A DNA stretch of 64,000 bases. Origin: Pseudomonadota bacterium (GTDB lineage Bacteria; Myxococcota_A; UBA9042). The DNA is taken from contig SXRM01000037.1 in NCBI GenBank assembly GCA_005792545.1, positions 1,706-65,705 of the forward strand, read 5' to 3'. Shown here in pieces: positions 10,319-64,000 of the stretch. Below the pieces are notes generated by a model. That model had not been told where the DNA came from. It did not search any database and worked only from the letters and a program-made list of their open reading frames with translations. Both the position numbers and the translations under genes were made by a program. Within the stretch, counting starts at the first letter, position 1, and each line of letters starts with the position of its first letter.

Positions 10319-11629
10319 GTGGTGCTGGCCTTGGTGTTCACGACCGCACAAATCGGCCACTTGCTGCACTACCCGCTGGCCGTGGCCCTGACGTGCGCGT
10401 CGCTGGGGCTGGCAGTTGCACGACCCGCCCTGGCGCAAGGTGCTGGGCCAGCCGCAGATGCCACGCCTACGAGCGCTGCCGCCGACGCCACCCCGGCAGG
10501 CCTGAGCGAAGCTGAACTCAAGGCGCTGGCCGAGGGCGCCGCTGCCGATGCCAGTTCCGCGCCCGCCGCCCCGGCGACGCCTCAGGCCACCAGCAGCGCG
10601 GCGTTGTCCAACCCAGCGCTGTCGCTGATTCTCGACACGGCGCTGGCGGGCTACAGCGAAGGCAAGCCGCTGCTTACCGGCGGCCACGACCCCAAGCGCA
10701 ACGGCTTCAACCTGCAGCAGCTGGAGCTGCACGCCGAGTCGTCGGTGGACCCGTACCTGACGCTGCAAGCCAACATCGTGTTTGCCCAGTTTGGCGTAGA
10801 AGTCGAAGAGATGTACGCAGAATCGCTGGCGTTGCCCGGGGGGCTCCAGCTCAAGGCCGGACAATTCTTGAATGCTTTTGGCCGAATCAACCCGACGCAC
10901 CTACACAGCTGGAGCTTTGCTGACCAGCCGCTGATGATTGGCAAGTTCTTTGGCAGCGAAGGCAGCCGCGGGCTGGGGGCGCAACTGGGGTGGCTGCTGC
11001 CGCTGCCGTGGTACGTCGAAATCAAAGCGGCGGCGACCGACGCCGTCGGGGCTTGCTGTGCGCGGTCGCTGCTTGGGGGCAACGACCTGCCGGTGCGCTC
11101 GCCGGCCGATGTGGCCTACACGGGCAATCTCAAGACCTTCCTGCCCCTCGACGAAGACTGGTCGCTGACGTTGTCGACCTCAGGCCAGGCGGGGCCGAAC
11201 GCGAGCGGCAACGGCAACCGCAGCGAGATCCTGGGCGGCGACCTGTACCTGCGTTACCGGCCAGTCGCGGACCCCGAGCGCCGCCACCTGTCGCTGCAGG
11301 TGGAGCACGCGGTGCGGGCGCGGCAAGTGCCGGGGCGCTCGTTGGTGGACCACGCCGGCTATGCGCAGCTGGTCGGCGCCTTGGCGCTGCGTTGGGAATT
11401 GGGCGTGCGCACCGAATGGACCACCGGCGTTGCGGGAGATCCGCTGGACCCCGACTGGACCACCAATCGCCAGCGCCATGCGGCGCAGCTGACTTTTTAC
11501 CCTTCACACTTCTCGCGGGTCCGCGTGCAGGCCACACTCGACCGACCGACGTGGCGGTCAGAGCCGATCTGGGGCGCGGTAGTGGCGTTGGAAGCGTTGA
11601 TTGGCGCGCACGGCTCGCACGGGTTTTAG
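10319..11629 (+). CDS. outer-membrane beta-barrel of the zinc-regulated receptor/porin type
   Basis: Signal peptide; GGHDPKRNGFNLQQLEL, FGRINPTHLHSW, alternating beta-strand pattern, C-terminal GAHGSHGF; exact start uncertain. Confidence 0.72.
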   Translation: MVLALVFTTAQIGHLLHYPLAVALTCASLGLAVARPALAQGAGPAADATPTSAAADATPAGLSEAELKALAEGAAADASSAPAAPATPQATSSAALSNPALSLILDTALAGYSEGKPLLTGGHDPKRNGFNLQQLELHAESSVDPYLTLQANIVFAQFGVEVEEMYAESLALPGGLQLKAGQFLNAFGRINPTHLHSWSFADQPLMIGKFFGSEGSRGLGAQLGWLLPLPWYVEIKAAATDAVGACCARSLLGGNDLPVRSPADVAYTGNLKTFLPLDEDWSLTLSTSGQAGPNASGNGNRSEILGGDLYLRYRPVADPERRHLSLQVEHAVRARQVPGRSLVDHAGYAQLVGALALRWELGVRTEWTTGVAGDPLDPDWTTNRQRHAAQLTFYPSHFSRVRVQATLDRPTWRSEPIWGAVVALEALIGAHGSHGF

Positions 11630-11762
11630 GAACTGTCCCAGAATAAGTCATTCTGGGACTGGTTCCGTTTGCTAGCTGGGTGGGTCGCAAGCTCGCGTCT
11701 TTGCAAGCCGACTCGCCGCTCCGCTAAATTGCAAAGCGATCGAGTTGATTTCGGACAAATCC
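11629..11762 (+). mobile_element. 134 bp dispersed MITE/REPIN-like element, copy 1
   Basis: 45 bp core at 11680-11724 identical to copy 2; 38 nt left-arm hairpin; imperfect terminal inverted repeats (14/21); flanked by TTA(G) direct repeats. Confidence 0.75.
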
Positions 11763-11775
11763 TTAGGAGTTTCAA

Positions 11776-20291: not shown

Positions 20292-20441
20292 TTCGCGCGC
20301 GGCCGGCTGTTTTTCGGTTGCCGCCGCCCCTTGCAAAACGCTACGCTACGCGCCCCTCGCGCCTTGGGCGACGGTCTGATGCTAGGACCGCAGCCCGTGC
20401 CGGCGCGCGCACCGCTGACCGCACAGGGAACGGATATCACC

Positions 20442-23400
20442 ATGAAACCAAACGGCATTGCCGTGAATCGTTTGTGGATCGCCGCTCTGTGCGCTGCGGC
20501 GAGCGGCTGTATCGCGGGCGGCGGCGGCGGCGGTGGCGGCGGTGGCCCCTTTGTGGCAGACAGCGAGCAGAGCGACCTGGTGCTGCAAATCGGCGACGGC
20601 GACGCAACCGGTGGCACCGGCGATGGGACCGCTGGGGCCGAGACGGACGGCCCTTCGACCGGCGACAGCGGCGGAACCGGCGACGGCGGCGGGCAGACGG
20701 GGGACGGCGGCGGCATCGGCGACACCGCGAGCCAAGGCGACACGGCGACCACCGACGCCAAGGACAGTGCAAGCGGCTGCACCAAGGCCGGCGATTGCGA
20801 CGACGGCAACCCATGCACCAACGATACCTGCAACGCCAACAAGTGTGCGTATGCGCCGGTGGCCGGCTGCGGCACCCAGCCCGTGCCCTGTGACGCCAAG
20901 AACGCGTGCCCGGCGGGCGGCGGCGTCTGCGACAACGAGGCCCACGCTTGCGTGCCGTGCCTGGTCAGCAAGGACTGCGGCGCCGGCAAGGTCTGCGCCG
21001 GCAAGCAGTGCGTCGCCGCGCCAGCTTGCAAGAGCGACGTGGACTGCAAGGCCAGCGGCAAGGTCTGCAACAAGACCGCGGGCGCCTGCGTCGAGTGCAA
21101 TCAGCCGGGCGACTGCGGCACCGACAAGGCCTGCATCAACAACCAGTGCTTTGCGGCACCGCCGTGCGCGACCAGCAAAGAGTGCGACAAGGTCTGCGAC
21201 TTCCAAAAAGGCGTCTGCGTCGATTGTTTGAGCGCCGAAGACTGCCCGGCCGGCCAGACCTGCACCCCCGACAAGCTGTGCAAGCCGGCGCTGTGCACCG
21301 CCAACGCGTGCGGCGCGGGCCAGAGCTTCTTTGTCTGCAAGCCGGGCGGCGGCGGCTACCTCGCAGGCGTGTCGTGCGAGGACGGCAATGCGTGCACGGT
21401 CAATAGCTGCGCGCCGGACAAGGGCTGCTCGACCAAGTTCAACGCGGCGACCTGCGACGATGGCGACCAGTGCACCGAAGGTGACGTCTGTTCGGTCGGA
21501 CAATGCGTCGGCGCCAAAAAAGAGTGCGACGACGGCAACGCCTGCACCAACGACAGCTGCAGCCCCAAGCTCGGCTGCGTGACCGGCCCGGCTTTTGGCA
21601 ACTGCGACGATGGCAACTTTTGCACCACCGGCGATTACTGCGAAAACGAGAAGTGCACCGGCACGCCCAAGGTCTGCGACGACGGCAACATCTGCACCAA
21701 GGACGTATGCGACCCCAAAGCCGCATGCCAGTTCGACACTGCCGAAGGCCCGTGCGACGACAAGAACGTGTGCACGAGCAACGACAAGTGCGTGTCGGGC
21801 GTGTGCCTGGGCGAGGCCAAGGGCTGCGACGACAACAACGCTTGCACCGATGATAAGTGCAACGTCGCCGGCGGCGGCTGCAGCTACACCAACAACGCCG
21901 CTGCTTGCGAAGATGGCAACCAGTGCACCACCGGCGACAAGTGCTCGCTCGGCAAGTGCTATGCAGGCGTCACCAAGAACTGCGACGACGCCAATCCGTG
22001 CACCACCGACAGCTGCCTGAACGGAGCCTGCCAGGGCCTGAACAACACGGTGGCCTGTAACGACGGCGACGCATGCACACTTGGCGACGCCTGCAGTGGC
22101 GGTGCTTGCAAGGCCGGCGCGACGCCGCAGACGTGCAACGACAGCAACCCCTGCACCGACGACAAGTGCGACAAGCTGGTCAACTGCCAGTACCTGGCCA
22201 ACACGGCAGACTGCAACGACAGCAATGTCTGCACCGACGCCGACAAGTGCGCCAACAAGGCCTGCGTGGGTGGCGCGGCCAAGACTTGCGAGGACAACGA
22301 CGCTTGCACCCAGAACACCTGCGACAAGGTCGCGGGCTGCAAGTACCCGGCCGATCTCGCCAAGTGCGACGACAAGGACCTGTGCACCACCGACAGCTGC
22401 TCAGCGCCTGGCGGCGCCTGCAAGCACGACAAGGTGCCCAACTGCTGCACCAAGCAAAGCCAGTGCGACGACGCCGACCCGTGCACCGACGACATCTGCG
22501 CCGGCAACCAGTGCGTGCACAAAGGCAACGGCAAGTGCTGCGCAGAAGACGGCGAGTGCAATGACAATTCGGCGTGCACCGCTGACTCGTGCCTGCTCGG
22601 CAAGTGCCAGTTCACCACCTTGCCTGGCACGCCAACGCCTGCCGTTCTGGGCGACTGGGAAGACCTGGGCGACATCCAAGACTGGGTCGCCAACCCCAAC
22701 GTCGGCGTCATCGGCTGGTCGCAGAGCAGCACGGCCGGCGCCAACACCGGGTCGGGCGCGCTGCTGTTTGGCGACCCCGGCAAGCTCAAGAACGCCAGCG
22801 GCACGGTGTCGGTGTCGATCCTCAGTCCCAAGTTCACCGTGCCGGCCGGCGGCAAGGCCACGTTGTCGCTGAGTTGGAAGCAGGATTTCGTCGGCTTGTC
22901 GTCCACGGCCTACCCACCACTGGTGGTCTACGTTGTCGCGGGCGGCAAGGAGACGGCGCTCAACACCGGCTACTACAACACGCTCAAGAAGTACCAGCCG
23001 ATTACGGTCGACTTGTCGCCCTACGGCGGCCAGTTGGCGCAGGTCAAGCTCGTCGGCCTCATCTACCACAGCGCAGCCTCGCCGGCCTCGGGCTATGGCG
23101 TGGTGGTCGACGACGTCACCACCTCATGGACCTGCAAAGCGACGACCTGCACCGCAGACAGTGGCTGCACGACAGCCTCGGCGTGTTCGCAGGGCGTGTG
23201 CGTGGCCGGTTCGTGCGCCTACGCGTTCAAGTGCTGCACGCTGGCCACCGACTGCAACGACAACAACCCGTGCACCACCGACTCGTGCAGCGGCACCAAG
23301 TGCGTGCACAGCAAGATCGCCGGCTGCTGCGGCAAGGACACGGAGTGCAACGACAGCAACGTGTGTACCTACGACACCTGCAATGTCGCCACCAAGACCT

Positions 23401-24149
23401 GCAAATTCGCCGGCGTGTCCGAATGCTGCACCAGCAATGCCAATTGCAACGACAACGAAGCCTGCACCATCGACAGTTGCGACGCCGGCACCTGCAAGTT
23501 CCAGAACACCTGCTGTGCCACTGACAAGGAGTGCGACGACAAAGACAACACCTGCACCATCGACAAGTGCAACCTGACGACCAAGAAGTGCGAGTACACC
23601 GGCACCGGCGTCGCCGGCTGTTGCACCCCGATTGTGTGGAAGGAGAGCTTTGACACGCCGCTCGCGGGCTGGACCATCTCGAATTCTGGTGGCGCCACAA
23701 AGGGTTGGCAGCAATGGGCCACACCCAAGAACCCACCGGGTCCCAAGTCGGCGCCCGGCGTGCTGTACTATGGCGACCCGCCGTTACTGAACTTCAATTT
23801 TGGCGCCAACAGCGGCACCATCAAGTCGCCCAAGATCACGTTGCCGCCGACGGCGACCAAGCTGACCGTCAAGGCGTGGCTGTACATGGACACCGAAGCC
23901 GGCGGCGCCGGGTCCTACGACGACCTCTACCTGTATCCGGTTGTCGACGGCGTGCAGATGGCGGCAGTCTGGACCAAGTCGACGGTCGGTTTCACGGTCG
24001 GTTCTTGGATTGCGATTACCGGCGATCTGACGGCCTACAAGGGCAAGTCGCTGGAGCTGCTGTTCAACTTCAACACCAAGGACAGCATCGGCAACAGCGG
24101 CCTGGGCGTGCTCATCGACGACCTCATCGTGGAGCGCGCGTGTCCGTGA
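20442..24149 (+). CDS. large Cys-rich surface lipoprotein with about 21 C-D-D-G-N-x-C-T-x-D-x-C repeats and two beta-sandwich domains
   Basis: Lipobox ASGC, Gly/Asp/Thr linker, repeats counted by eye, two mutually similar domains (GxLxFGDP...SPKxTxP...DLxxYxG...GVxxDD). Confidence 0.85.
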   Translation: MKPNGIAVNRLWIAALCAAASGCIAGGGGGGGGGGPFVADSEQSDLVLQIGDGDATGGTGDGTAGAETDGPSTGDSGGTGDGGGQTGDGGGIGDTASQGDTATTDAKDSASGCTKAGDCDDGNPCTNDTCNANKCAYAPVAGCGTQPVPCDAKNACPAGGGVCDNEAHACVPCLVSKDCGAGKVCAGKQCVAAPACKSDVDCKASGKVCNKTAGACVECNQPGDCGTDKACINNQCFAAPPCATSKECDKVCDFQKGVCVDCLSAEDCPAGQTCTPDKLCKPALCTANACGAGQSFFVCKPGGGGYLAGVSCEDGNACTVNSCAPDKGCSTKFNAATCDDGDQCTEGDVCSVGQCVGAKKECDDGNACTNDSCSPKLGCVTGPAFGNCDDGNFCTTGDYCENEKCTGTPKVCDDGNICTKDVCDPKAACQFDTAEGPCDDKNVCTSNDKCVSGVCLGEAKGCDDNNACTDDKCNVAGGGCSYTNNAAACEDGNQCTTGDKCSLGKCYAGVTKNCDDANPCTTDSCLNGACQGLNNTVACNDGDACTLGDACSGGACKAGATPQTCNDSNPCTDDKCDKLVNCQYLANTADCNDSNVCTDADKCANKACVGGAAKTCEDNDACTQNTCDKVAGCKYPADLAKCDDKDLCTTDSCSAPGGACKHDKVPNCCTKQSQCDDADPCTDDICAGNQCVHKGNGKCCAEDGECNDNSACTADSCLLGKCQFTTLPGTPTPAVLGDWEDLGDIQDWVANPNVGVIGWSQSSTAGANTGSGALLFGDPGKLKNASGTVSVSILSPKFTVPAGGKATLSLSWKQDFVGLSSTAYPPLVVYVVAGGKETALNTGYYNTLKKYQPITVDLSPYGGQLAQVKLVGLIYHSAASPASGYGVVVDDVTTSWTCKATTCTADSGCTTASACSQGVCVAGSCAYAFKCCTLATDCNDNNPCTTDSCSGTKCVHSKIAGCCGKDTECNDSNVCTYDTCNVATKTCKFAGVSECCTSNANCNDNEACTIDSCDAGTCKFQNTCCATDKECDDKDNTCTIDKCNLTTKKCEYTGTGVAGCCTPIVWKESFDTPLAGWTISNSGGATKGWQQWATPKNPPGPKSAPGVLYYGDPPLLNFNFGANSGTIKSPKITLPPTATKLTVKAWLYMDTEAGGAGSYDDLYLYPVVDGVQMAAVWTKSTVGFTVGSWIAITGDLTAYKGKSLELLFNFNTKDSIGNSGLGVLIDDLIVERACP

Positions 24150-24180
24150 CTTTGGAATACGTCATCCCCGCATCGGGTTT

Positions 24181-24314
24181 GGTCACGTGAAAAATCTGCT
24201 CGATTTTCCACGTACGCCCCGTGCTTGCTCAGTGGGTCGCAAGCTCGCGTCTTTGCAAGCCGACTCGCCGCTCCGCTGTTGGGCAGGGCGATCCACTTGT
24301 TCTTACACAACTCC
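24181..24314 (+). mobile_element. 134 bp dispersed element, copy 2
   Basis: Core 24232-24276 identical to copy 1 at the same offset (51 nt); flanked by TTT(G) direct repeats; left-arm hairpin of different sequence but same geometry. Confidence 0.72.
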
Positions 24315-24326
24315 TTTGTGCCGCTA

Positions 24327-56400: not shown

Positions 56401-57525
56401 AAGACCTCGGAATTGCTGCGCAATTGGACGTCGTGGGCCAACGCCATGGAACTGCGGCTGGTCACCGAAAAGGCCCGCGACGTTCGCGTCGCGCACCTGG
56501 CGCAGCTGGCGCGGGTGCTGCTGACGGAGCTAGGCGACGAGCGTCGCGCCAAGCCAATCGTGGCGGAATTGCAGAAGCTGGCGCCCAAAGAGCCGGCCAC
56601 GCGGCAGGTGCTGGCGATGGTCAAGTCGCACAGCGGCGACCCGGCTGAGGCTGCGGCAGGCCTTGAGCAGGTGGTCAAGGAGACCGACGACCCGCAGGCG
56701 CTGCTGGCCATCCACCAGCAGTTGGCCGATCTGTACCTGGGCCCCTTGAACAACCCGGGCAGGGGTATTCGCGAGCTGCAGCGGCTGGTGGCGCTCGATC
56801 CGCGGCGCTGGGAGTTCCGGCGCAAGCTGTGCGATCTGTACGCCCAGCGGCAGTCGTTTGAAGCGCTGGCGGAGTCGCTCAAGCAATGGCTGGCGCAGCT
56901 CGAAGACCCTGACGACAAACGCACGCTACAGCTGGCGCGCGGCTTGGAAATCGTGACCATCATGCGGGAACTGGCCGACGTTCTGATGACGCTCGGCAAG
57001 CCGCAAGAAGCCGCGACCAACTTGCGGCGCGCCTGGGAGCTCAACGGCAGTGACGCGGCGCTCAACACCACGCTCGCGCCGTTGCTCGAGCTGACGGGCG
57101 AAGTGCGATTGGCTGGCGAGCTGCACGACTGGCTGGCAGCGCACCACGCCAGCGACAAGGCCAAAGTTGCCGTACACTTGTCGCGCTCGGCGCTGCTGCA
57201 CGAACGTCAAGGCGACCTGCAGGGCGCCCGCGACCGCTTCAAGCGGGCGATGGAGTCCGCGCCCGGCGACGACGAGGCCACGCTCGGCAGCGCACGGGTG
57301 TGCCTGGCGTTGGGCGAAGCCGATCGCGCCATGCGCTTGTTTGACCTGGTCGCGCGCAAGCCGGCCAACACCGTGCCCGCGGATTTGCGCGCCGATGCGC
57401 AGGTCGGCATGGGCAAGTGTCGCCTCCAGCGCAATCAGCGCGACCAGGCGCGGGCCTGCTTTGAGCAGGCGCTGGCGCTGGTGCCGGGCCACAAGGCCGC
57501 TGCCGAGGCCTTGCTGGGGCTTTAG
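47458..57525 (+). CDS. giant (3355 aa) TPR/alpha-solenoid protein
   Basis: Uninterrupted 10 kb ORF; recurring TPR-like units (...LALDPxxxxA...) throughout; no signal peptide seen. Confidence 0.85.
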   Translation: MIAPDQSAPTDGMQWPVLGDVEQIAEALQYGTADAAKATEVLLELSSREPHPRVRAALLRATASLVAGNDAARATGLYRESFRLFPTVEAGQALAQLTADDPTFQRLFRYGHVVDAVAALAAEGPTAVEALADAARGHVSQGHGRAALLCLDRLLAAQPEHAEAQELRETALAQIEARQEALIAQRLALAECDEADRANSLLAYAELLLAGDEPLADAAAALADAVESGAEFAAAAPLWVEVARALGDETELTRALACSLAAGDALPTRLQHADELVNIAGIDRTAPAAALVALKTLHEAMPDDLAIAARLEGATRLASDDPDGQLEVMRLQAVRDRDRLAETVASLGLASLAAGRQDWAGAERHYRRVRTLAPQDGEALDFFERFYRQTGDHKRLLVALSQRLGATEGRETVRIALEMAQLCEGPLESPDRAVEAFQRVLTVQPDHDGALRALRRLHEGQGRWAAVRDTLERTARAQLAKAAVDPRTKSAAVATLEQLVDVCADAARADDKAAAAQFARQILDVDPGHARALALVDAHLHESGRFAELVAVLRRAAAQAGDAKAGILLRMGNVLADDLGQPAAAIDAWRAALDAQPGLAEAQSRLRHAARATGDSGAVLASLLDEIGSVVGIAAIDLNTPVPETLGAVIAAPAQADVAAQLLEAAVLAEARGDGKRLAGRLYALIAAGTPADDAAVEGVVRCWATADDGAQLLTVLQRLVGLEDQAERKARLLTLQADIQLNVAMDMAGALATAKQARQLSADDSRTREIHIEAAIGVGDLDELRGACGTTKEGLSLFADRALHIAASSEGVGRFRWWQAAATVLHDELGETERAALALSDAVQACLSAAAEPATASTQQFLGAAERGQLCDQLRKYAHDAGLRGAERLALEAWLEVAEGAELRAARLALVDLMVASGELGDADAMARSLAEEAVAERDATMLVQALDRQIGLVQDPEVADPALGWESIADVLTLAAGDAELLTLAGDALLERCMRACGDLAQGETLWPTLARIAVAGLACCRPREAATRLQLLEWQETACVESGQWQGAVQAAQALAEASLGDGAAGSASAAWVRAAEWAQDRLNDRATAEALYRKAVAASPEDTAAWAGLVATLRDGDATALALVLEDVLTLPATGRESRARYALERAELSSALAESDPLGAVWPVVGSLGEVDGLTEAEEALVAIAAGQLDMPEFGSAIAQRLLPVFERHGRAEEAMRCRELIALHAPRRSDARISGLVAVADAVAQGSPRQAFDALFHAVADAPERADLFDRLDALAGRIGAQDRLQRLLRGMAGLDTSGEFVAVAEAARAAVLGKLAQLAVARADYAQVVEACSAWQALQAEAAEPWALAEQAYLALGEGNAADAAAQAQTERGTPAARADAWLRRIARAADEDAALAWEVSKQAVAALPQDVGVRQRHLALAHDLGDDGALAEALAGALDALPSALADVGVARRQLAEALTRCGDDRALQAATSWLALLDDDPADDEAIAACFSLLPALRSANAAEARALLERLEPIADARGESDRVDALLDALVELAADDVTRVELLQRQARVREVALGDQLGALTCLGRAAQLSGNVQTQLPGMTTAGKAALDAGQAPAQVAAAFEWAAASRSQASDRLALRRAGLGVVGDGAGLDASRALLEGVLADDPTDAGAMAQLDRLAAASGDARARLALLSLRIARAGNADEANAIWLERAQIAADAALTDDARHSYTQAALSGDAELRIAARAGLADLCESTGDLVGAAAAVRGLVSDHTDKDDRVGLRMRAAALAQAGEDLPLARDILAEGLAEARDSLALFNAMDAVLADAGDDEALVEHLRDAWQRITDLSDDDRHAVAARWIGLVQLLHGPGEDLANAAANLDSGMLADGAIGDALDALTSADTEGAQWAPWQQQAWSLVAERAARAQDAERELGARLQLGTSGLDRTTRVDGRRRSAALLDQIGETGAALAKWYEVLELGVVDNVGWTDGDVDAIFELADRADSASEAGEYVQLAAAELTDLARKASVLLRLADRAAAAGDREAQWALAQQILAEDPAHSAALAARGEALAAWSDAPPEARVAHARDVAAHASDSARAAAQLELAALLVADPATVEEGARTALAIAQADTSQAQAAFALVQAVADRTEATVALARLAAPLSVAAAAWLQNRARDAGDWAELDALLAASAERSGADDPDAAVAALLELADLRSGERNDAAAAAQALDRARALAPTNESVLRLRLQMADDAGDHAVVADLCEALAAVVQGEEAPVLSYRAAEAWYAADQHDRAIAACDRAVAADDSAADAHLLRAELRDRQGQPEVAVADLDAAASRQRGVDEAAAARLWLRTAELARKANLPEAWSKALAQATGAGAGSRANALAEAGSLEGAWLRRAVADLAPALHAANLAGEALALRRRLADTATGADRLAARRGLAQQSAADGDPVGALATLFEVATDRELPPDDLLEVLVEAHGVAASGALVEDWIDRVAELVGCGDVPEDQATAVVGFAAQTAADAGRADRGADLWDALWDQRPDDGDARDGTLALRRQADDPSRLAAALEKALVFADAADKPTLRIELAALKLDDLGRPREALRLVQDVLAADAAHDEALALAERLTDNAVLGDETLTLLDKHYRATKNWTGLERVLSKRMERAKNAAVKAELAQMLAQLQSEQLSHADDALRSLWAAMQADPRLTTLETIEKLARNSDHDDMLAKAYGQVLTSALRPDDRAQVLTRAAALDKRRGDLAAAERRLREALQVSPNLGDAFDLLDVLLDEQNRFSDLVTLLLERAAKVGESDVQRALFGRAAELARATNDQEGALDAYARLAALDPGDVASRLAQVEILREAGLDARLSTALASLADVTGDRRERAELLCEAARLQHTGADANERIEGLYQRAFAASGACDEAFVWLERHLHGNPRQLIPILQARAEALSKGPTRTLALRKLAHAHRDLDNAADACAALEAALADDKHNAAVLDELIKTSELLRNWTSWANAMELRLVTEKARDVRVAHLAQLARVLLTELGDERRAKPIVAELQKLAPKEPATRQVLAMVKSHSGDPAEAAAGLEQVVKETDDPQALLAIHQQLADLYLGPLNNPGRGIRELQRLVALDPRRWEFRRKLCDLYAQRQSFEALAESLKQWLAQLEDPDDKRTLQLARGLEIVTIMRELADVLMTLGKPQEAATNLRRAWELNGSDAALNTTLAPLLELTGEVRLAGELHDWLAAHHASDKAKVAVHLSRSALLHERQGDLQGARDRFKRAMESAPGDDEATLGSARVCLALGEADRAMRLFDLVARKPANTVPADLRADAQVGMGKCRLQRNQRDQARACFEQALALVPGHKAAAEALLGL

Positions 57526-57659
57526 GGCCTCGAAATGATTGACTCAATCATTTCTCTGGCCCATTTGCTTGCTCAGTGGGTCGCCAGCTCGCGGCCTCGG
57601 AGGCCGACTCGCGGCTCCGCCTTGGGCCGAGAGTGTTCAAGTCATTGTTTTCCAGTCCC
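57525..57659 (+). mobile_element. 135 bp dispersed element, copy 3
   Basis: Core 57576-57620 at offset 51; terminal inverted repeats 14/19; TTA(G) direct repeats; left-arm hairpin GAAATGATTG/CAATCATTTC. Confidence 0.72.
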
Positions 57660-57690
57660 TTAGCAGCAGGCCGCTTGTAAAGGTTAGCCG

Positions 57691-61349: not shown

Positions 61350-61367
61350 TGCGCTGAACGAGCTATA

Positions 61368-61501
61368 CAGCATCGCCTTGAGTTGAGATCAGAACCTTGG
61401 ATAACCGCGGAGCGACGAGTCGGCTTGCAAAGCCGCGAGTTTGCGACCCACGCAACAAGCAGGAACAGCAATCGCGATGGCCACGGGTCATTGCGGTCCT
61501 G
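61368..61501 (-). mobile_element. 134 bp dispersed element, copy 4
   Basis: Core 61451-61407 on minus strand; TATA direct repeats; terminal inverted repeat CGAG(C/G)TATACAG; left arm overlaps the last codons of the CHAT gene. Confidence 0.65.
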
Positions 61502-64000
61502 TATACCTCGCCCCCGAGCCCACAAACGCCGCCCAGTAGAACGGATGCTGCCACTTCGGGTTGGCGCGCACCACCGCCTGCGCCGTCCGCAGTGCCTCTG
61601 CTTTGGGCTGCCCGCCCTTCCAGGCCCGATAGAAGGCCTCCATGAGCGCCCGCGTCGCCTGATCGTCCACCGGCCAAAGGCTGAGCACCACCGACTGCGC
61701 CCCGGCAATGGCCAACGCGCGCCGCAAGCCATGGACGCCGTCGCCGCCGCGAACCTCGCCCATGCCGGTATTGCATGCCGACAGCACCGCCAACTCAGTG
61801 CCCTGCAGGTCCAGGCTGGCGACCTCCAGTGCCGTCAGCACGCCGTCGTTCGGGCTCTTGTGGCGGTTGAAGCCGGCGAGCAGTAAGCCACTGCGCAGCA
61901 GCGGCATCTTGGCAGCGACGGCGGTCGCTTTGCCGGCGGCCAGGAAAAACCCGTGGGTGGCCACGTGCAGCAATTTCGGTCCGCGCGTGGCCAGCAACGC
62001 CTGCTTGGTCGCTGCGGCGCCCGTCAGCAGTCGTGCATCGCTGAACAGTTCCGCGACCGCCTGCCCTTCGGCCCTGGTGCCGGGCAACGCGTCCACAGCC
62101 ATGGCACTCAGGTCTGCCGCGCGGTCGACGGCGACCTTCGCACGCGGCCCAAAATCCGGGTTGGCCAGTACCAGCGGCGGTTGCCGCGAGGCCGCGCGCG
62201 CTGCGCCGGTGATTAATTCGCGCCCCGATCCCAGATAGCTGAGCGTGGTCGTTTCACCCAGCGCTTGGCCCCCGGCCACAGGCAAAGCGGCCAGGGGCAC
62301 CAAGAGCAGCGTGCCATCGGCCGAGACATGCAGGCGACTGGCACCCTTGAGGGCCGGCATCAGGGGCTGAAGCACGCGCCCGGCCAGTGCGAGCAGCGCC
62401 GGTTGGGCCTCTGTGGCCGGATTCGCCAGCGCCTGCCGCGCAGCCTTGACCGACTGGTCCAGTTCATCGGTAGGGCCCAGGTCATACCACTTGGGTGCAC
62501 CGCGGTCGCGCAGAACGCAGGCGGCCATGCGCGCCGGCAAGGGGTGCGGCGACCAGGCTCCCGCGCGCAACGTGTCTTGCGGAGTCCAGGCGGCAAACTC
62601 GACGAGCGCCGTCGCCGCATCCAGCTTGCTCTGAACCGCCGCGACCGTGGCTTCGGGCGCGGTCTTGTCGCGCCATGCCGCGCTGCGTTGGCCCAATTCG
62701 CCCTCGTGGCGGGCAATGGTTGCGGTCAGTTCACTGACCCTGCCTTGCCACGCCGCCACATCGGCCTTGGCCGGCTTGTGCAGGTAATAGGCCGCCAACT
62801 GCAGCCGCGCCTCGCTCAGCGCAGCGACCGCCTGCTGATCCTGCGGGTCCAGGCGTCGGCGCAGCACATCGACGGTGTCGGCCAGCACATCGACTGCGCG
62901 ACCGTGACGACGCAGCACAGTCTGCAGCGCAAGCTCGGCGGCCTGCGGGTTTTGTGGCAGCCATTGCACGGCGTATCGCAGCACGACCGCGGTCTCGTCG
63001 CTGACGTTTTGCAGGACACTGGCCTTGCGCTGCTCGTCGCCACTCCACAGCAGCAGGGCCACCTCCGCGTCGCGGATGGCAGTGGCGCGCACGCGCAGTG
63101 GCAGCGCTTGCTCGTGGGCGCCACGGGCGTCGAGCAGGTCGCCGAGGCGCCAAAGTTCGGCAAAAGCCTCGCCGGAATTGTCACCCGCCACCTTTTCGGC
63201 CATCGCGAGCGACTTGCGCATGTTCCTTTCGGCGTCGGCCAGCTTGCCCTGCATGGCGTCGGTCATCGCCAGGTTGTACCAGTCCGCCGCCAATTCGCGG
63301 CTGGGATCGCCAAACAGCTTGCTGTCCAGGATCATCGCTTTGGTATTGTGCTCCCGCGCCTGCGCGAACTGGCCCGCCGCGCCAAGCGCCGCGCCGAGGT
63401 TGCCATGGGCAGTCGCAGCTTGCGCACGGTCTTCGCCGAACGCTGCGACTTGAGTCGCCAGCGCCTGCCGCATCAGGGCGACCGCGGTGGTCGGGTCGTC
63501 CGCCAACAGCGCATCGGCCAGGTTGTTCTGCGCAGACGCGGTGTTTGGGTGCGTCGGGCCGTTGGTTGCGAGGTGAATGCGCAGGACTTCGCGCCGCCGC
63601 GCCAACAAGCGATCGCGGTCGCCACAAGAATCGTCGATGCGAGCCAGCACATCCAAGGCACCGACGCGCGCTGGGTGATCTGGGCCGTGCGCGCGCACGA
63701 TCAGCTTCTCGGCGCGTTGTGCATCGCGTTCTGCACCTGCGACGTCACCCCGGTCGAGCGCGAGACTGGCAAGTTCCAGCAGCGAGTTGGCCAGGTCGGG
63801 GTGGTTCTTCCCCTGCACCTTTTCGCGCAAAGGCAAGGTCTGGCCTAGTAAGAGCGCGGCCTTGTCCGGCTGGCCCATCCGCCGCAGCACCCGCGCATAG
63901 TGCTCGGCGATGTTGATGACGTCGGGATGTTCTTCGCCGTAGGCGGTTACCCCAATTGCGAAGGCCGCTTGCAGCTTCTTGGCTGCTTCATCGAGCAAAC
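61488..64000 (-). CDS. TPR-repeat plus CHAT (caspase-like) domain protein, 5' end outside window
   Basis: Kinesin-light-chain-like TPRs (HPDLANSL, HPNTASAQNNLA); LHVATHG and VLSACNTG catalytic dyad; HPFYWAAF. Confidence 0.92.
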   Translation of the reverse strand, partial: LLDEAAKKLQAAFAIGVTAYGEEHPDVINIAEHYARVLRRMGQPDKAALLLGQTLPLREKVQGKNHPDLANSLLELASLALDRGDVAGAERDAQRAEKLIVRAHGPDHPARVGALDVLARIDDSCGDRDRLLARRREVLRIHLATNGPTHPNTASAQNNLADALLADDPTTAVALMRQALATQVAAFGEDRAQAATAHGNLGAALGAAGQFAQAREHNTKAMILDSKLFGDPSRELAADWYNLAMTDAMQGKLADAERNMRKSLAMAEKVAGDNSGEAFAELWRLGDLLDARGAHEQALPLRVRATAIRDAEVALLLWSGDEQRKASVLQNVSDETAVVLRYAVQWLPQNPQAAELALQTVLRRHGRAVDVLADTVDVLRRRLDPQDQQAVAALSEARLQLAAYYLHKPAKADVAAWQGRVSELTATIARHEGELGQRSAAWRDKTAPEATVAAVQSKLDAATALVEFAAWTPQDTLRAGAWSPHPLPARMAACVLRDRGAPKWYDLGPTDELDQSVKAARQALANPATEAQPALLALAGRVLQPLMPALKGASRLHVSADGTLLLVPLAALPVAGGQALGETTTLSYLGSGRELITGAARAASRQPPLVLANPDFGPRAKVAVDRAADLSAMAVDALPGTRAEGQAVAELFSDARLLTGAAATKQALLATRGPKLLHVATHGFFLAAGKATAVAAKMPLLRSGLLLAGFNRHKSPNDGVLTALEVASLDLQGTELAVLSACNTGMGEVRGGDGVHGLRRALAIAGAQSVVLSLWPVDDQATRALMEAFYRAWKGGQPKAEALRTAQAVVRANPKWQHPFYWAAFVGSGARYTGPQ

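Follow-up and report, generated by a model that had tools for sequence, protein, structure and literature searches.

A non-autonomous IS5-like transposon of freshwater Myxococcota with a fixed core, changing ends and a hairpin in one arm

Four copies of a short non-coding element are found within a stretch of 64,000 nucleotides (the window), which occupies positions 1706-65705 of contig C270 in a freshwater Myxococcota genome assembled in 435 contigs with a total of 7.03 Mb and 66.5% GC. All four share a core of 60 nt, while the arms differ in sequence from copy to copy and keep a similar fold. An earlier note on this DNA had therefore assumed that selection acts on the structure of single-stranded DNA or RNA rather than on a terminal sequence, unlike in classical MITEs, and had named an HUH transposase as a candidate enzyme. 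Two questions are thus raised by the locus, namely how the element moves and why one of its arms is folded.

The flagged element, copy 2 (24181-24314, forward strand), is a 134-nt MITE of the degenerate subfamily B2, matched by a covariance model at 24181-24280 with 97.1 bits. It is non-coding and situated between the stop of a large gene for a Cys-rich repeat protein (20331-24149) and the next co-directional gene; within the upstream gene about 17 diverged repeats with a 47-nt core (20793-23578) encode Cys-rich CxDDxNxCT modules. The trinucleotide TTT precedes the element at 24178-24180 and follows it at 24315-24317, a putative 3-bp target duplication which is atypical for a family otherwise flanked by TTA or TAA. 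The left arm (24181-24218, forward) forms the hairpin ACGTGaAAAATC / GATTTTcCACGT with the apex TGCTC at 24197-24201 (-11.7 kcal/mol as RNA, z = -3.3; z = -3.5 as DNA), and is followed by the near-invariant 60-nt core (24217-24276, forward) with its T-rich 5' end (TGCTTGCT). Inside the core lies a mini-hairpin, GTCTT-TGC-AAGCC (24249-24261, forward), whose second pair is a T-C mismatch in this copy. The right arm (24277-24314, forward) is a diverged inverted copy of the left terminal repeat and is devoid of a hairpin.

The core recurs at 11665-11724 and 57561-57620 on the forward strand and at 61407-61466 on the reverse strand. Copy 1 (11629-11762, forward, subfamily C, 107.6 bits with the covariance model) has its hairpin at 11629-11666 and is enclosed by a TTA duplication (11626-11628 and 11763-11765), the stop codon TAG of the upstream gene being located at 11627-11629. 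The same arrangement is displayed by copy 3 (57525-57659, forward, subfamily D, 110.2 bits), with the hairpin at 57525-57562, TTA at 57522-57524 and 57660-57662 and the stop codon TAG at 57523-57525. Copy 4 (61366-61503, reverse, 72.5 bits), a variant of subfamily A, ends in TACAGG...CCTGTA inside CTATAC...GTATAG, and its long hairpin CAGGA..GCAAT/ATTGC..TCCTG is weak (z = -1.9 as DNA).

Concerning the first question, the ends of the element proved to be informative. All subfamilies measure 132-138 nt and have sharp boundaries, at which a terminal inverted repeat of about 24 nt is found; it is specific for the subfamily, begins with GG..(C/T)G(T/G) and has at its inner end the motif ACTCGAT, which is common to the subfamilies. 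Between left and reverse-complemented right arms identity amounts to about 75-80% within the first ~24 nt and falls to about 50% beyond; in the six subfamily consensuses 9-10 of the first 13 positions match, followed by 6-10 of the next 11. The partial complementarity of left and right ends noticed earlier in copies 1-3 (14/21, 12/23 and 14/19) was exactly reproduced by a base-by-base count. TTA/TAA flanks were direct in 15 cases (eight TTA/TTA, seven TAA/TAA) and inverted or mixed in none (binomial p = 6e-5); they represent a 3-bp direct target duplication, which varies between copies. In subfamily A the length of the duplication is ambiguous, TA or TATA, because the ends are palindromic. In the GC-rich host genome the TTA/TAA targets lie mostly on stop codons.

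Empty sites were found in relatives. The joined flanks of copy 3 align uninterrupted in the sister species G003, G001 and G008, as do those of copy 2 in the congener G003, so that no insertion was shared with the closest species at the two sites tested, and the insertions checked are mostly species-specific and young. At the stop codon of copy 3 two other species (loci L053 and L054 of G002 and G009, orthologous to 57520-57690 of the window) carry a different insert of about 120 nt, which lacks the core and is flanked by TAG...TAG; this stop-codon site seems to be a recurrent landing spot.

The element is consequently a non-autonomous cut-and-paste transposon, an IS5-like MITE of 132-138 nt, and is not assigned to the HUH elements on account of its terminal repeats, the 3-bp direct duplication, the empty sites and a Y1 transposase gene with an unrelated repeat of its own. 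This gene, the only Y1/RAYT-like one in the genome (C146:1560-2470, locus L001), is flanked by inverted copies of GGACGTCC(T/C)CGTCCGCC, about 19 of which occur genome-wide and which constitute a separate REP-like family unrelated to the element; on contig C146 no copy of the element was detected. A single-strand DNA element of the REP/REPIN or IS200/IS605 type, with an HUH (Y1) transposase recognising the hairpin as a structure, would agree with a kept fold and a free sequence, as is typical of REP and IS200/IS605 ends, and with the first letters of the element, TA(A)GG or GTAGG, which immediately precede the hairpin and are reminiscent of the GTAG of REPs. However, HUH elements make no target duplication, whereas here a variable one is present (15 direct, none inverted) together with ~24-nt terminal inverted repeats and a hairpin at one end only, and the sole Y1 gene serves as neighbour to a different repeat. 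We therefore regard this reading as highly improbable, and the HUH transposase suggested earlier is abandoned.

Likewise, the assumption that structure is kept rather than a terminal sequence was only half borne out: the fold is indeed maintained by compensatory change, but each subfamily possesses sequence-conserved terminal inverted repeats of about 24 nt, as in classical MITEs.

Candidates for the mobilising enzyme are present in the genome. Five matches to DDE_Tnp_1 transposases were obtained, and many insertion-sequence ends of the form GAGGGTGT... are flanked by TNA, often exactly at the end of a MITE; they are related to, but not identical with, the terminal repeats of the element. Several IS5-family insertion sequences (ends GAGGGTGTATTCATAACC, AAGGGTGTATGCAAAAAC, GAGGGTGTGGCTAAATC and others) are flanked by TNA and break contigs about 135 nt in, as at C6:43626 (reverse), C45:30469 (reverse) and C66:48948 (forward); they are also located next to copies of the element at C186, C188 and L008, frequently exactly on the TTA/TAA at a MITE end. 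A search of the fragmented 435-contig assembly, with three mismatches allowed, for an autonomous or long element with the terminal repeats of the MITE, or for solo arms, yielded only chance matches. Movement would be accomplished by IS5-family DDE transposases acting in trans, which are abundant in the genome and share the TNA target, and whose GAGGGTGT ends are related to those of the element.

The family amounts to about 230 copies in this 7-Mb genome. It was found in all ten congeners searched, with 16 to more than 99 matches each, and sparsely in four or five neighbouring genera of the same family, and was absent from 16 genomes of other families. In a pattern scan of public genomes the core was encountered only in MAGs of uncultured freshwater Myxococcota, originating from Lakes Baikal, Zurich, Tanganyika, Mendota and Erken. 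A search of the literature for MITEs of Myxococcota retrieved no paper.

The second question concerns the left arm. The first ~38 nt of the element form a stem-loop of 16-18 bp, the stems being long, with A+T-rich tops and internal mismatches. The earlier description of copies 1-3, with hairpins at the same offset and different stems, proved correct in its sequence details, except that in copy 3 the closing G-C pair had been counted twice, once with the stem and once with the 5-nt apex. The three arms fold well below shuffled sequences (RNA z = -5.5, -3.3 and -6.0; DNA z = -5.7, -3.5 and -7.4), while the right arms of the four window copies fold no better than shuffles (z = 0.0, -1.0, -0.1 and +1.8). 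Of the 213 genomic copies with full flanks, 183 have the apex at a distance of 17-19 nt upstream of the core. At stem positions ±3 to ±8 Watson-Crick pairs make up 93-99%, and each position shows two to four types of pair; the hairpin scores of right arms and of random genomic positions remain at noise level.

Covariation was evident in several ways. Genomic copies comprise 64 distinct 8-bp stem haplotypes, the minimum spanning tree of which contains at least 20 double changes from one Watson-Crick pair to another, compared with 0-2 when the partner is slid. In an alignment of 73 non-redundant copies the paired cells amount to 82%, a fraction that none of 500 shuffles reached (shuffled value 67%), and the covariation score is 0.415 versus 0.187 shuffled and 0.08-0.17 slid. 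For 39 copies from other genomes and genera, the alignment of which was model-fitted, the corresponding values are 86% against 61% paired and a score of 0.557 versus 0.165 shuffled and 0.07-0.12 slid, and both sides vary in 20 of 20 pairs. New stems such as GGCGATCGGTAAAAAT/ATTTTTACCGATGCC and GGGCCTGTTCAAC/GTTGAACAGGCCC appear in other genera. Across genera at least 15 unrelated stem sequences share one geometry, where the core stays about 80% identical and the arms are unrecognisable. In a MAFFT alignment the arm hairpin escaped RNAalifold owing to register shifts. The claim that the arm fold is kept by compensatory change is upheld within the genome and beyond it. Unrelated local terminators, which the earlier note had considered as the opposite outcome, can be dismissed: a whole subfamily has one stem type, which lies within the terminal repeats and the target duplication, and the hairpins are therefore part of the element.

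How such a covariation comes about becomes apparent from the architecture of the arm. The 5' half of the hairpin together with the loop is the left terminal inverted repeat, with the inner repeat motif ACTCGAT at the apex, and the 3' half is an extra segment of about 13 nt complementary to the first ~16 nt of that repeat. Because this segment follows directly after the terminal repeat, the whole left arm folds into the stem-loop of 16-18 bp; the right arm carries the repeat but not the complementary segment, which results in a one-armed fold. The terminal repeat changes between subfamilies and the inner segment changes complementarily, hence the covariation between copies. Simple co-evolution of the two ends of the element is no explanation, since the upper stem (e.g. 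AATGATT/AATCATT) has no mirror in the right arm. By itself, covariation within a repeat family is no sign of a structured RNA or of an HUH mechanism.

A requirement of transposition at the DNA level has to be weighed at this point. The inner segment could act as a third copy of the inverted repeat, either as an extra transposase-binding site or through a cruciform or fold-back at the left end, so that only master copies which keep the hairpin would spread, and an orientation bias in operons (see below) would arise incidentally, because only one of the arms is folded. This would fit the identity of the 5' stem half with the terminal repeat itself and of the apex with the conserved ACTCGAT, the nearly pure Watson-Crick pairing, equal on both strands, and the intact hairpin in every active subfamily, including the youngest with its 47 near-identical copies. 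Yet perfect but unique hairpins are carried at the same offset by single-copy core relatives and by those lacking the arms or the terminal repeats (C357, C82, C194, C395), and a genome search for solo 38-nt hairpin elements found none.

The decay of copies after insertion also bears on this reading. Private substitutions, i.e. those arising after insertion, were expressed as density per site within eight subfamilies, and amounted to 1.9% in the core, 2.5% at left positions 14-24 and 2.5% in the left inner half, compared with 3.4% in the left terminal 13 nt, 3.7% in the right proximal part, 4.1% in the right terminal 13 nt and 4.6% at right positions 14-24. Upper stem, loop, inner half and core have thus acquired about half the private substitutions of the termini and the right arm (core vs right arm p = 2e-10; left inner half vs right terminus p = 0.016; left 14-24 vs right 14-24 p = 0.004). 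The slower decay of hairpin top and core than of the true termini (for upper stem, loop and inner half 2.5% against 3.4-4.1%) points away from a pure transposition requirement, and we consider this explanation possible but rather doubtful. Slower decay of stem and core could alternatively be caused by hairpin-templated repair of the palindrome or by gene conversion among the ~230 core copies.

No RNA-type tolerance of wobble pairs was seen in the stems, the opposite strand folding equally or slightly better (-18.8 vs -19.7 kcal/mol), nor any strand asymmetry of G-U pairs (133 vs 116 on the opposite strand). Private one-sided stem changes on the sense strand are more often A-C than G-T (33 and 17, p = 0.03), which if anything is opposite to the expectation for a sense RNA.

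The core, of which 233 instances were retrieved from the genome with nhmmer, is conserved as primary sequence and T-rich in its first ~10 nt. A compensatory change from GGCTT-TGC-AAGCC in copy 4 to GGCCT-CGG-AGGCC in copy 3 had been pointed out before, and the mini-hairpin was confirmed to covary genome-wide: 51 haplotypes occur among genomic copies, core positions 35 and 41 pair as T-A in 113 copies and as C-G in 57 (97% Watson-Crick), further variants of this region are CC/GG, CG/CG and CA/TG, and the closing pair is inverted in another genus. Beyond these 5 bp neither column variation nor pair tables nor RNAalifold supported any secondary structure of the core. The core fold proposed by RNAalifold on the MAFFT alignment was weak (-4.6 kcal/mol) and not adopted, and a helix GCTTGC/GCAAGC and a pair 26-51 had no supporting neighbours or covariation and were treated as lineage markers. 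Rfam gave no match in the window at gathering score, and none for copy 3 up to E = 10. The idea that selection acts on single-stranded DNA or RNA structure would thus have to be restricted to the left arm and the mini-hairpin, the folds of which are kept, as the 60-nt core is maintained as primary sequence and a hairpin is found in one arm only.

A different organisation of the same core was observed in tandem arrays of the same genome, with a period of 86-118 nt, a CCATTTTTGGG tail and no terminal-repeat arms (C16:6825-7054, C307:81-249, C423:11697-11979, C173:10704-10849, C115:12-148, C303:30-204). In mosaic copies (C183:2596, C174:33193, C61:972) a left arm of one subfamily is joined to a core or right arm from a second one, an indication that recombination has taken place through the common core.

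Such recombination would agree with a fold devoid of any function. A founder palindrome would then be inherited in each subfamily, with intrastrand template-switch repair keeping palindromes and gene conversion among hundreds of copies keeping the core uniform. Double changes within copies are indeed mostly compensatory (7 vs 1), as templated repair would give, and the youth of most checked insertions is in line with this. It is harder to reconcile with one geometry shared across genera by at least 15 unrelated stems beside a core of ~80% identity, and with the right arm, an equally old copy of the inverted repeat, which has neither kept nor gained a palindrome. Together with an orientation bias specific to tandem genes, which shows that the asymmetry matters to the host, these observations render an absence of function very unlikely in our opinion.

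This bias was obtained with crude, GC3-based gene calls made in the present analysis. Between tandem genes 45 copies are inserted in sense and nine in antisense orientation (p = 7e-7), and convergent contexts outnumber divergent ones by 43 to 11, with a genomic baseline of 652 to 589 (p = 7e-5); copies are enriched at the 3' ends of genes. Where copies abut a stop codon in tandem pairs, the hairpin end lies at the stop of the upstream gene in 32 cases and the right end in one, as against 16 and nine in convergent pairs (Fisher p = 0.0014). Being tandem-specific, the orientation bias depends on the downstream gene and was not fixed at insertion. At least 18 sense copies are positioned only 5-33 nt before the next co-directional gene, including argC-like and metal-uptake operon genes, and in G003 the empty site of copy 3 is a 30-nt spacer before an argC-like gene. 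Such short gaps are likely operon junctions, at which transcription would probably continue through the element, so that efficient termination is improbable.

Nevertheless, a Rho-independent terminator, composed of hairpin and T-rich core start and recruited by the host at gene ends, deserves attention. The stem of 16-18 bp is followed by (C)NTTTGCTTGCT, with a mean of 4.4 T in 10 nt in a genome of 66% GC, and stem and T-rich tail are conserved in other genera (e.g. AGTTTTGCT, CTTTTTTCAG); the enrichment at gene 3' ends would suit this role, for which SPRITE offers a precedent. An efficient terminator would, however, be polar on the genes that the 18 or more sense copies closely precede, and would predict sense copies to be depleted between tandem genes, where they are enriched. 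A terminator of this kind is expected to have a G+C-rich stem with an adjoining U tract of 5 or more T in 8 nt; a consensus scan called none at the left hairpins, and a consensus scan for sigma-70-like promoters revealed none in copies 1 and 3. We judge an efficient terminator to be distinctly unlikely. Inspection by eye of core and right arm for sigma-54 or sigma-70 promoters furnished poor matches only, which were rejected.

The account which we favour, and hold to be probable by a modest measure, is that of an IS5-type MITE whose hairpin and core have their place in the RNA made from the adjacent genes, whether by an effect of their own or by being tolerated there, rather than in end-binding by the transposase. 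From their decay at roughly half the rate of termini and right arm, hairpin and core would not be needed as transposase end-binding sequence, and most likely exert their effect, or are tolerated, once transcribed with the neighbouring genes. Between co-directional genes, where the majority of copies are placed 5-35 nt ahead of the next gene, almost only one orientation would survive, with the hairpin at the upstream stop and the unfolded right arm towards the next start. Transcribed along with its neighbours, the hairpin would probably form a 3'-end or intercistronic stem-loop comparable to REP or SPRITE, and hardly an efficient terminator. A more far-reaching proposal, which we think unlikely, sees in hairpin and core a host-constrained cis-element dispersed by transposons, i.e. 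a mobile module of RNA (or single-strand DNA) read by a dedicated factor of the lineage; recombination through the core would swap its terminal repeats, and several IS5-type transposases would spread the cargo to gene ends and operon junctions.

On the favoured account, slower decay of stem and core combined with the orientation rule in operons provides a testable case in which the sites where a selfish element is tolerated are determined by its own architecture. In GC-rich bacteria with few canonical terminators, the element may also have come to serve as an RNA-level signal of gene boundaries.

Closest in mechanism are the MITEs derived from the IS5 family (IS1031/IS427-type), which have a 3-bp TNA target duplication. 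With these the element has in common its small size, the non-coding sequence, terminal repeats starting with GG, the 3-bp TTA/TAA duplication, empty sites in relatives and IS5-family elements with the same target in the same genome. It differs from them in that its subfamilies have different terminal repeats and share the 60-nt core, the reverse of the usual pattern, in that the left repeat is locked in a hairpin by the extra complementary segment, and in that a partner with matching ends was not found in the 435-contig assembly. The eukaryotic counterpart is represented by the PIF/Harbinger-Tourist MITEs; canonical Harbinger elements are relatives of the IS5 family and duplicate 3 bp at their target (PMC12730594).

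Closest in appearance is SPRITE of pneumococcus, an 18-bp duplex with a U-rich tract, enriched at gene 3' ends (PMC3049150). The element resembles it as a dispersed repeat with a predicted duplex of ~18 bp in front of a U-rich tract; both are situated near the 3' ends of genes, with an enrichment in convergent pairs. The ends of SPRITE consist of AAAA/TTTT only, and it lacks a proven duplication, whereas the element displays long terminal repeats, a duplication and an invariant core. Its frequent occurrence within apparent operons speaks against strong termination. In its presumed role in RNA the element is nearest to REP, BIME and REPIN with their RAYT (Y1 HUH), which are extragenic palindromes also kept as a fold at gene ends and, as REP-type elements, are known as stabilisers of mRNA 3' ends and attenuators (PMC3049150); unlike these it shows a target duplication, a single hairpin arm and no linkage to the only RAYT-like gene of the genome.

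Correia (CREE/NEMIS), ERIC and Chunjie are MITEs of 100-235 nt that are co-transcribed with their neighbours, fold as RNA, have orientation-dependent effects and are tolerated in operons, as reported for Chunjie of Geobacter (PMC10969869). In all of them the two terminal repeats pair together, whereas the conserved fold of the element is local to one arm, and there is neither sequence similarity nor an Rfam match. The target is different as well, that of Correia being TA. While families of MITEs are normally defined by shared ends with free interiors, this one has a fixed interior with changing ends, and at one of these ends compensatory change has preserved a fold across genera; unusual in comparison with the known systems are the constancy of the core beside variable ends, the folding of a single arm and the orientation rule specific to tandem genes.
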